This document shows positions 39,301-42,300 of a stretch of DNA of 64,000 nt, piece after piece; positions within the stretch are counted from its first letter, which is position 1, and each line of letters opens with the position of its first letter. The DNA lies in assembly GCF_056746865.1 (NCBI RefSeq), contig NZ_CM163382.1; one strand, 5' to 3'. Made by a program: the position numbers.

Positions 39301-42300
39301 GCGCCATCCGCCAGACCGACCAGCACACCGGCGCTTAACCACAGCATCATCAGGTTGTCAGAATGCGCTGTCAGGAAGAAGCCTAATCCCAGCAAAATGC
39401 CGGAAGCCATAGTGACGCGTTTAACGCCAAAACGTTCCTGTAATTTCCCCGCAACAGAAGATGAAATTGCCAGCCCCAGACTTAACAAGCCGAAAGAGAA
39501 AGCGACCTGGCTTACCGGCGCATCCAGCTTGGCAGAAAGCGCGCCGTTAAACAGGCTCCAGGTATAAACCGACCCCAGCGCAAACTGGGTAATGATAGTA
39601 CCGATGAGTGTCAACCAGCGGGTACGCTGATAATTTGAAGGTGTCATGGCAGTATTCCTGCAGTAATAAAAAGGAAAAATCTCTGCTGACAACCATAACG
39701 AAGTGCACTTTATGCCTGGGGAAAAACGGCATGAAATGCCATCAGAACGGAATGAAATGCATTAGTTCAGGAATGAATGACTCGACAATTATTCACCAAA
39801 TTTATTATTTAGTAAGTTAGCACCCACTATCGCCACAACTGTTGTTATCCAATGGTTTCAATTGTATCTATAACGTTAAAATCTGGCACTAACCCCCATC
39901 GTATACAGATAGTCGCTATTGTTAGTGGTATTTTCTGTCTGAGATAGCGCCGCATAGGCAGCAATATTTTGATTGAGCAACATATCAGCGCCTACGGTGA
40001 CATCCAGCCAGTTGCCGTTCTGGTTTGTCGCCGTCATCCGGCTCAGGCCTGATTGCGCCTTCCAGATATTCTCGCCAAATTGCTGGTTATAGCTGATTTG
40101 CGCCCAGGGTCGGAGATCGCCAAGCCGGGAGTCAACACGCCAGCCTAAGGTACTCACGCTGGCATGCCATAACGGATCGGCCAGCGTGGTAGTACTGTCG
40201 CCAAACTCGTTATACATCGAGGTGGTTGTGCCATCGTAATGTAATGCCGCGACCGGGCCGGTTGTAACCTGCTCATATAAAGGAAAATTCCAGCCCATAC
40301 TCATACTGCTGGTCACATCCACAGGAGTTTCTTCCGCCAGATTGACTTCCAGTCCCAGCGCCCTTTGGCTACTTTGAATACGTTGCGACAAAATATCGTT
40401 GTAATCAGGTTGATGATCACTATCCCAGGTGTAACGCTCTGTGGAATGTCCGGGTTGCGTATCAACGATATATTCTTGTTGCCAGGCGTAAGCTGTGTTG
40501 AGAAAAAAGGCACTGATTACCACACTCGCCAGCAGGCTTAGCTGCCAGCGACCACCGCTTTTTTTTATGATCATTAACACGACTCCAGGGAAGAGCCGAA
40601 TTCGGCAATATTATTGTCATTGTATGAAGGATATCGGGCATAGTAGCCCTGTATTAAATATTGACTTTTTCACCGATGCGTCAAGAAAAGCGGCTGAAAT
40701 TTTTACGATCGGGTACATAGCGAGGGAAAGTATGGAACGTTGCGGCTGGGTGAGTCAGGACCCGCTTTATATTGCCTACCATGATAATGAATGGGGCGTG
40801 CCTGAAACTGACAGTAAAAAACTGTTCGAAATGATCTGCCTTGAAGGGCAGCAGGCTGGGTTATCGTGGATCACCGTCCTCAAAAAACGCGAAAACTATC
40901 GCGCCAGCTTTCATCAGTTCGATCCGGTGAAGGTGGCTGCAATGCAGGAAGAGGATGTCGAAAGACTGGTACAGGACGCCGGGATTATCCGCCATCGCGG
41001 GAAAATTCAGGCAATTATTGGTAATGCGCGGGCGTACCTGCAAATGGAACAGAACGGCGAACCGTTTGCCGACTTTGTCTGGTCGTTTGTCAATCATCAA
41101 CCACAGGTGACACAAGCCACAACGTTGAGCGAAATCCCTACATCTACGCCCGCCTCCGACGCTCTATCTAAAGCCCTGAAAAAGCGTGGTTTTAAGTTTG
41201 TTGGTACCACAATCTGTTACTCCTTTATGCAGGCATGTGGGCTGGTGAATGATCATGTGGTTGGCTGCTGTTGCTATCCGGGAAATAAACCATGATTCGG
41301 GAAGCGCAACGTTCAGAACTCCCCGCGATCCTCGAACTGTGGCTGGAAAGTACAACCTGGGGGCATCCCTTTATAAAAGCGAATTACTGGCGTGATTGCA
41401 TTCCGCTGGTGCGGGATGCCTATCTTGCCAACGCGCAAAACTGGGTCTGGGAAGAAGACGGTAAGTTTCTCGGTTTTGTCAGCATTATGGAAGGCCGATT
41501 TCTGGCTGCAATGTTTGTCGCACCGAAGGCCGTCAGACGCGGTATTGGTAAGGCGCTGATGCAGTATGTGCAGCAGCGCCATCCCCATCTGATGCTGGAG
41601 GTTTATCAAAAAAATCAACCGGCGATAGATTTCTACCATGCGCAGGGTTTTCACATTGTCGACTGCGCATGGCAGGATGAAACCCAACTACCCACCTGGA
41701 TTATGAGCTGGCCGGTGGTTCAAACGCTGTAAGTGTCAGTTCCGGACCGTTGTATTTTTCCAGCCATGCCAGCGCCGTATTACCCGCACAGCCATTCCCC
41801 AGCCGCGAGCTGGGGAGATCTTTGGTCAGAACGTTCACCGCGCCGTTTTTACAAATACCGTCAGCGGTTAAATCCAGATCCGGCCAAGCCCCTTCATGAA
41901 TACAAATCACGCCAGGTTTAATTCCCTCGCTAATGACCGCTCCGGCAAGAATTTGCCCGCGTGCGTTCCACAACCGAACAATATCGCCATCTTGTATGCC
42001 GCGCGCCTGGGCATCGTCAGGATGAATGGTGACAGGCTCACGATTTGCCACCGCGTACAATTCGCGCAGAGAACTGTAATTCAGCTGGCTGTGCAGACGA
42101 TGTGCCGGATGAGCAGAAAGTACCTGCAACTGTTCCGGTTCGGCATTGCCCTGCCATTCGTCCGGCTCCAGCCACATTGGATGCCCAGGGCAATCCGGAT
42201 AAGCGTAATCGGCAATACGCTGCGAGAAGATTTCAATCTTGCCGCTGGCGGTTTTTAATGGATGCGCCTGCGGATCGCGGCGAAAATCGGCGAAGCGAAT

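Follow-up and report, generated by a model that had tools for sequence, protein, structure and literature searches.

The 32-nt convergent overlap of yiaC and bisC is a known arrangement, probably kept by double coding in the Enterobacteriaceae sampled

The locus considered here lies in a 64,000-nt stretch of E. coli chromosomal DNA (contig NZ_CM163382.1), the whole of which we refer to as the window. Two genes, yiaC and bisC, converge on each other at this locus and have the last 32 nt of their 3' ends in common (positions 41701–41732), as read from the open reading frames in the window sequence. Together with the upstream gene tag, the features of the overlap are:

40732–41295, plus strand: tag, DNA-3-methyladenine glycosylase I, the first gene of the tag-yiaC pair
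41292–41732, plus strand: yiaC, a GNAT lysine acetyl/lactyl-transferase of 146 aa, with its TAA stop at 41730–41732
41701–44034, minus strand: bisC, biotin sulfoxide reductase (a molybdopterin S/N-oxide reductase) of 777 aa
41701–41732, both strands: the shared segment, encoding YiaC I137–L146 plus stop and BisC L768 (in part)–S777 plus stop
41701–41703, minus strand: the bisC stop codon TAA, the reverse complement of the yiaC Ile137 (ATT/ATC)–Met138 (ATG) junction
41730–41732, plus strand: the yiaC stop codon TAA, the reverse complement of the bisC Leu768 (CTT)–Thr769 (ACN) junction

Codons 137–146 and the stop of yiaC thus face codons 768–777 and the stop of bisC, in a phase (yiaC:bisC) of 1:1, 2:3, 3:2, i.e. 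123:132. At its other end, the yiaC start overlaps the tag stop by 4 nt (ATGA, 41292–41295). RefSeq/PGAP gives the same yiaC and bisC coordinates for strain 118UI, K-12 C600 and MG1655, the MG1655 equivalents being 3713652–3714092 for yiaC and 3714061–3716394 for bisC. Strain 118UI is 100% identical to the window over a 1-kb query, and this 1-kb overlap region was found in 5419 of 5426 complete E. coli genomes. A preliminary description of this DNA had reported a 32-nt convergent overlap at these positions in which the genes share about their last ten codons on opposite strands, and the reading frames and RefSeq coordinates agree with it on both counts. It had also called the arrangement a known core one, which is correct: the overlap is annotated in K-12 and listed in the literature, its 1-kb region is nearly universal among complete E. 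coli genomes, and we regard it as already known and ordinary. What our analysis adds is its conservation across the family, an asymmetry between one stop that is locked and another that is mobile, the mutual constraint at the level of codons, and a link to a published Rho region.

Both partners are well-defined genes. YiaC matches the equivalog NF007853 with 267.6 bits (cut-off 125) over profile positions 1–145 of 146, and BisC matches TIGR00509 with 1100.6 bits (cut-off 1017.55), reaching position 768 of 772; both thresholds are curated family cut-offs. Tag scores 432.6 bits against NCBIfam NF007678. The activity of YiaC as a lysine acetyl- and lactyl-transferase has been characterised (PMC6199490, PMC9636275).

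The shared segment falls on the very ends of the two proteins. In the AlphaFold model of YiaC (pLDDT 94.9), the last beta-strand spans residues 133–140 and residues 141–146 are of low confidence. That strand, through W140, overlies the last three, variable, residues of BisC together with the bisC stop, and the six-residue YiaC tail and its stop overlie the conserved BisC sequence L-T-A-F-(D/E)-P-P. The core of the YiaC family stops at M138-x-W140, beyond which there are short variable tails; distant homologues carry 0–10 residues past the conserved M-x-W, and the paralogue YjaB (2KCW), at 147 aa, is of equal length. Over its C-terminal 200 aa, BisC can be aligned with Rhodobacter DMSO reductase (1EU1) as far as residue 778 of the latter's 780, TorA structures give a similar result, and colinearity with DorA and TorA extends to the last 2–3 residues. 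Judged by these comparisons, neither YiaC nor BisC is unusually extended. We considered a long stop-loss extension of one gene into its partner and rejected it on the grounds that, for both proteins, the C-termini of distant homologues are equally long.

A scan of a genome collection with a YiaC alignment yielded, among the matches listed, 80 species-level Enterobacteriaceae loci from 18 named genera. The convergent overlap is present in all 79 species with an intact bisC (17 named genera, again among the matches listed); 43 of them share the 32-nt length seen here, whereas the overlap measures 38 nt in 33 species and 23 nt in 3. In these 79 species, the bisC stop invariably lies 410 nt after the yiaC start and is TAA in 52 and TGA in 27. 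In Intestinirhabdus alba, bisC has been cut down to residues 3–35 and 764–777, and yiaC and its tail are unaltered. Rare database proteins of 191–202 aa were also seen, which points either to occasional frameshift or stop loss in the overlap segment or to mis-assembly.

When the 80 species were aligned without gaps on the bisC stop, the shared segment was almost invariant and the flanking third codon positions were saturated. Mean column entropy at yiaC third positions was 0.20 in the overlap vs 1.09 in the flank, and at bisC third positions 0.57 vs 1.15. The use of bisC codons is skewed in the same place, as a comparison of the overlap with the bisC body of the same genomes shows for the 80 species, which are related, so that the percentages are descriptive rather than formal tests and are not phylogenetically independent:

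bisC L768, CTT: 51% in the overlap vs 9% in the body
bisC T769, ACG: 85% in the overlap vs 33% in the body
bisC A770, GCG: 84% in the overlap vs 48% in the body
bisC F771, TTT: 92% in the overlap vs 57% in the body
bisC D772, GAT: 100% in the overlap vs 62% in the body
bisC P774, CCT: 71% in the overlap vs 10% in the body

The skewed codons are those that yield YiaC Q141-A-D-Q-T-P and the yiaC stop. On the BisC side, the L-T-A-F-D/E-P-P motif is conserved, with entropy close to 0 at residues 770, 771, 773 and 774. Because synonymous variation is suppressed in the overlap and bisC codons are skewed to suit YiaC, both frames appear to be under purifying selection. With shared 3' nucleotides, two real genes and selection seen in both frames, yiaC and bisC form a convergent overlapping coding-gene pair.

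The constraint does not fall equally on the two stops. With yiaC Ile137 as ATT the bisC stop is TAA, and with ATC it is TGA; ATA, which would abolish the bisC stop, was never found in the 80-species alignment. YiaC M138 and W140 are nearly invariant throughout the family, including in relatives at 35–44% identity, which explains why the bisC stop, complementary as it is to the Ile137-Met138 junction, never shifts. The yiaC stop, by contrast, is found 9 nt upstream or 6 nt downstream in other genera. The BisC end carries L-T-L-T-A-F, and synonymous bisC changes within it shift the yiaC stop: the 32-nt form corresponds to CTT at Leu768, and the 38-nt form, with a YiaC of 148 aa, corresponds to CTG or CTA at Leu768 combined with CTT at Leu766. 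The 23-nt form results from a CAA-to-TAA change at yiaC Q144. The alignment therefore shows an asymmetry in which the bisC stop is locked, whereas the yiaC stop is mobile.

In Dickeya, where YiaC is 44% identical, the gene order is glyQS, a TauE-family gene, tag-yiaC, about 550 nt and then ghrB; in a second outgroup relative (YiaC 41% identical) it is glyQS, tag-yiaC, about 470 nt, a GDT1-family gene and yiaD. Neither bisC nor bisC remnants were found downstream of yiaC in Dickeya or in this second outgroup. For YiaC relatives at 48–49% identity, the contigs did not extend far enough to reveal the neighbouring genes. Since both have tag-yiaC without an adjacent bisC, the yiaC-bisC juxtaposition is best read as derived and specific to the sampled Enterobacteriaceae, and it could have arisen either by insertion of bisC or by loss of bisC in the outgroups.

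Neither transcript can end between the genes, because there is no intergenic DNA between them. The preliminary description had noted that no room is left for a terminator, and a consensus terminator and promoter scan of 40400–44300 indeed found no terminator-like site in 41701–41732, so that a bidirectional intrinsic terminator between the two stops is absent. Over the whole of 40400–44300, the scan returned 6 terminator-like sites vs a shuffle expectation of 5.3 ± 2.2. Published data point to a different mode of termination. Adams et al. (2021) reported a Rho termination region at MG1655 position 3714344 on the plus strand, which they classed as antisense to bisC (PMC7815308). Its upstream/downstream counts were 90/23 in untreated cells and 60/112 with bicyclomycin, with a Rho score of 7.3 and a p value of 5.5e-14 (PMC7815308, Supplementary file 2). 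By coordinate mapping, this region lies 252 nt beyond the yiaC stop, at approximately position 41984 of the window. Two stretches of skewed composition bear on how Rho might act here:

41824–41992, plus strand: C-rich, G-poor stretch past the yiaC stop, in untranslated RNA that runs antisense to bisC, a possible site of Rho loading
41389–41570, minus strand: C-rich, G-poor stretch antisense to yiaC, with C/G up to 2.08, where Rho could load onto read-through RNA from bisC

On the plus strand, the C/G ratio of 41824–41992 is 1.5–2.0, a value that reaches or exceeds the window's 95th percentile, and the published Rho region falls at the end of the stretch. The tag-yiaC transcript hence has, ahead of its termination zone, at least some 80 nt of RNA that is untranslated, rich in C and poor in G, as is characteristic of Rho terminators. 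For the minus strand, the tables of Adams et al. contain neither Term-seq 3' ends nor Rho regions within MG1655 3713200–3714399, where the plus-strand Rho region is the sole entry and no Term-seq ends are given; yiaC and bisC are also absent from the TERMITe tables. The bisC transcript may likewise be terminated by Rho inside the region antisense to yiaC and tag.

Taken together, these observations favor a reading in which the locus is a genuine tail-to-tail overlap of long standing between two coding sequences that are unrelated to each other, kept by double coding and not by dedicated regulation; we assign this reading a probability of roughly three in four. Each stop codon is made from sense codons of the partner gene: the bisC stop is locked by YiaC Ile137-Met138, and the yiaC stop is set by a bisC CTT at Leu768 or Leu766, giving rise to overlaps of 23, 32 and 38 nt. 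The tag-yiaC transcript enters bisC in antisense and untranslated, crosses the C-rich, G-poor stretch and is ended by Rho about 250 nt downstream, a step shown in the literature. The bisC transcript would probably end in a similar manner within the yiaC/tag antisense region. The resulting complementary 3' ends would make the pair an "excludon" by definition, and any interference between the two transcripts would probably be weak at the low expression seen.

An alternative we consider unlikely is that the pair is a functional excludon, in which mutual repression has been selected and operates through collision of RNA polymerases or through cleavage by RNase III where the 3' ends pair; expression of YiaC and BisC would then be reciprocal. 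The pair is one of 165 convergent excludons detected in 50% or more of 58 MG1655 transcriptomes (PMC12288877), and head-on collisions have been reported to contribute to termination at convergent pairs (bioRxiv 10.1101/2022.10.23.513370). However, overlap of the coding sequences makes overlap of the transcripts unavoidable, and the listing therefore adds no evidence for regulation; support for the alternative is limited to this unavoidable overlap. Retention of the arrangement in 79 of 79 species, among the matches listed, could likewise reflect a selected regulatory role, but it is fully accounted for by coding constraints in two frames, and Intestinirhabdus alba kept yiaC and its tail unchanged after losing almost all of bisC. 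Moreover, local read counts are low, at about 90 reads per 800 nt, and no functional link is known between YiaC and BisC. The preliminary description had gone no further than to call transcriptional interference or antisense effects possible, which fits both the excludon listing (PMC12288877) and the Rho region (PMC7815308) and leaves regulation as a possibility.

A second alternative concerns two potential RNA structures embedded in the coding sequences on either side of the overlap:

41795–41817, plus strand: 9-bp hairpin TTCCCCAGC-N5-GCTGGGGAG, in bisC codons LPSSRLGN, 63 nt past the yiaC stop
41633–41675, minus strand: 13-bp inverted repeat CTGCCATGCGCAG/CTGCGCATGGTAG, in yiaC codons, 26 nt past the bisC stop

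The first is a candidate terminator-like or 3'-end-protecting element, and the second a candidate 3' hairpin of the bisC mRNA. In this alternative, which we hold to be about as improbable as a functional excludon, the two would be dual-use intrinsic terminators, stem-loops that position polymerase collisions, or 3'-end protectors. Both stems are stable and kept in most genera, although the plus-strand hairpin is lost in Klebsiella and Raoultella. This hairpin was flagged as terminator-like in our scan, but U-tracts are weak or 20 nt off the stem, and no curated Term-seq 3' end is listed at these sites, the measured Rho dependence being further downstream. In three of its pairs both partners have changed at synonymous sites; such compensatory double changes hint at a selected structure. 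Its covariation score of 0.065 also exceeded all 500 shuffles (0.031), yet controls in which the partner was slid gave 0.061–0.071 and thus match it. Covariation in the minus-strand hairpin did not rise above the controls, 27 of 500 shuffles scoring equally high. Much of the pairing follows simply from the conserved residues that both arms encode. Folds of the whole region on the two strands were unexceptional (z-scores of −1.6 and −1.3), and no Rfam match was found in 40400–44400 at E ≤ 1.

We give slightly less credence still to the broader proposal that the interlocked overlap is a selected regulatory device allowing either the lysine acyl-transferase YiaC or the sulfoxide-repair enzyme BisC but not both, with both hairpins serving coding as well as termination or collision positioning and conserved across the Enterobacteriaceae. 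Finally, the reading that the overlap is an annotation artefact from a wrong stop or frame has virtually nothing left to recommend it: the preliminary description had named mis-called stops as what would remove the overlap, but both stops are directly legible in the sequence, both end positions are conserved over 17 genera, curated family profiles span both C-termini and purifying selection is seen in both frames, and mis-called stops are therefore excluded.

The value of these results is mostly practical, and they open no long-standing questions. Because the overlap is real, neither yiaC nor bisC can be deleted or tagged at its 3' end without changing its partner. Deletions of the Keio type retain only the last 21 nt of a gene; if that design was used here, ΔyiaC would delete the bisC stop and last three codons, and ΔbisC would delete the yiaC stop. 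The ΔyiaC phenotypes reported in acetylation and lactylation studies are thus worth checking for damage to bisC. Beyond this, the pair provides a clear and well-sampled example of how a convergent overlap becomes frozen, with one stop locked by invariant residues of the partner and the other moved by the partner's synonymous codons, and illustrates the reliance of convergent overlapping genes on Rho acting inside the partner gene.

Convergent overlaps have been surveyed repeatedly in E. coli, with counts of 58 (PMC2174442) and 75 (PMC4161906). Phase 123:132 is the commonest among those under about 50 bp and accounts for 46% of those longer than 4 bp, and intrinsic terminators are predicted in only 20% of genes of convergent overlaps (PMC2174442). 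Like the pairs in these surveys (Lillo & Krakauer 2007; Huvet & Stumpf 2014), yiaC-bisC overlaps by fewer than 50 nt and does so in phase 123:132; like most genes in such overlaps, it is without an intrinsic terminator, and, in line with the stop-codon-mutation model, it is mutation of stop codons that shifts the yiaC stop. It differs from the surveyed pairs in nothing categorical. Like the convergent excludons of ExcludonFinder (PMC12288877), among which it is listed, yiaC-bisC has overlapping transcripts; unlike most of those pairs, whose overlap is confined to UTRs and whose mean intergenic distance is 95 nt, its coding sequences overlap as well. It also resembles the Rho-terminated antisense and 3'-extended RNAs described previously (PMC7815308), in that a bicyclomycin-sensitive drop on the plus strand, antisense to bisC, follows a stretch of C over G. 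Unlike spurious antisense RNA, however, the terminated RNA is the normal 3' extension of the tag-yiaC mRNA, which has no other stopping place.

Within the window, 3 of the 8 convergent pairs overlap, and two others accompany yiaC-bisC:

4059–4087, convergent strands: kdgK and a hypothetical gene, overlapping by 29 nt
48089–48112, convergent strands: a small ORF and hokA, overlapping by 24 nt

These two overlaps have the same orientation as yiaC-bisC and a similar length, but they involve strain-specific or toxin-antitoxin genes, whereas yiaC-bisC joins two conserved core genes.

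The pairing of tag with yiaC, which couples a DNA glycosylase gene with a GNAT gene, predates the yiaC-bisC overlap. The 4-nt ATGA overlap between tag and yiaC is also present in Dickeya (loci L083-L085, 3444-4456), and in the second outgroup (L086-L088, 3389-4444) the two genes lie 6 nt apart.

Within the yiaC-bisC overlap, at window 41713-41728 and in the corresponding columns of the Enterobacteriaceae loci L003-L082, most genera carry GGCG-GATCAAA-CGCC, a 4-bp inverted repeat that encloses a GATC (Dam) site. In the E. coli version, GGTG-GTTCAAA-CGCT, the GATC is lost and pairing is retained only via G-U on the + strand. 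Position 41720 is T here versus A in other genera, a single base that alters both proteins (YiaC D143V and BisC D772E). In Intestinirhabdus alba (L062:3880-4100), bisC has suffered an internal deletion that leaves only the codons for residues 3-35 and 764-777. Despite this deletion, the locus keeps yiaC and the sequence of the former overlap intact, with a GC-rich palindrome (GGCGGTGCGC...GCGCACCGCC) after them.

Rare E. coli variants of YiaC in the databases reach 191-214 aa (entries P0002, P0004-P0007, P0009, P0022 and P0023) and continue through bisC in antisense. P0002 is a stop loss and the remaining long entries are frameshifts; all of them, P0002 included, could be real alleles or assembly errors. 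Most of the changes fall within or shortly before the overlap, although the P0023 frameshift lies farther upstream. P0004 has 11 members, E. coli records in NCBI and nr.

Elsewhere in the window, an IS3-family element (34744-36332), with an IS1397 transposase and its programmed frameshift, is flanked by dppA and a tRNA-Pro gene. The annotation of this strain gives bcsC as a pseudogene interrupted by an internal stop and marks bcsA as carrying a frameshift (both within 11746-21281), so the cellulose synthase operon appears to be inactivated. Other closely convergent arrangements in the window are as follows.

4059-4087: overlap of 29 nt between the convergent coding sequences of kdgK (3158-4087, +) and a hypothetical gene (4059-4643, -).
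48089-48241, -: hokA, a type I toxin gene, its 3' end overlapped for 24 nt by an annotated 23-aa ORF (48041-48112, +).
28361-28391: yhjV (+) and dppF (-), convergent, with a gap of just 29 nt.

The kdgK-side overlap borders five consecutive - strand genes annotated as 'hypothetical protein' (4059-6287) between kdgK and yhjJ, a run that looks like a strain-specific insertion. The ysaE-hokA pair is among those reported by ExcludonFinder (PMC12288877).

The yhjV/dppF pair is also present in that excludon list (PMC12288877), and a Rho termination region lies antisense to dppF at MG1655 position 3702288, + (table of Adams et al., PMC7815308). It thus shares the pattern of yiaC-bisC, an excludon listing together with a Rho termination region antisense to the - strand partner.
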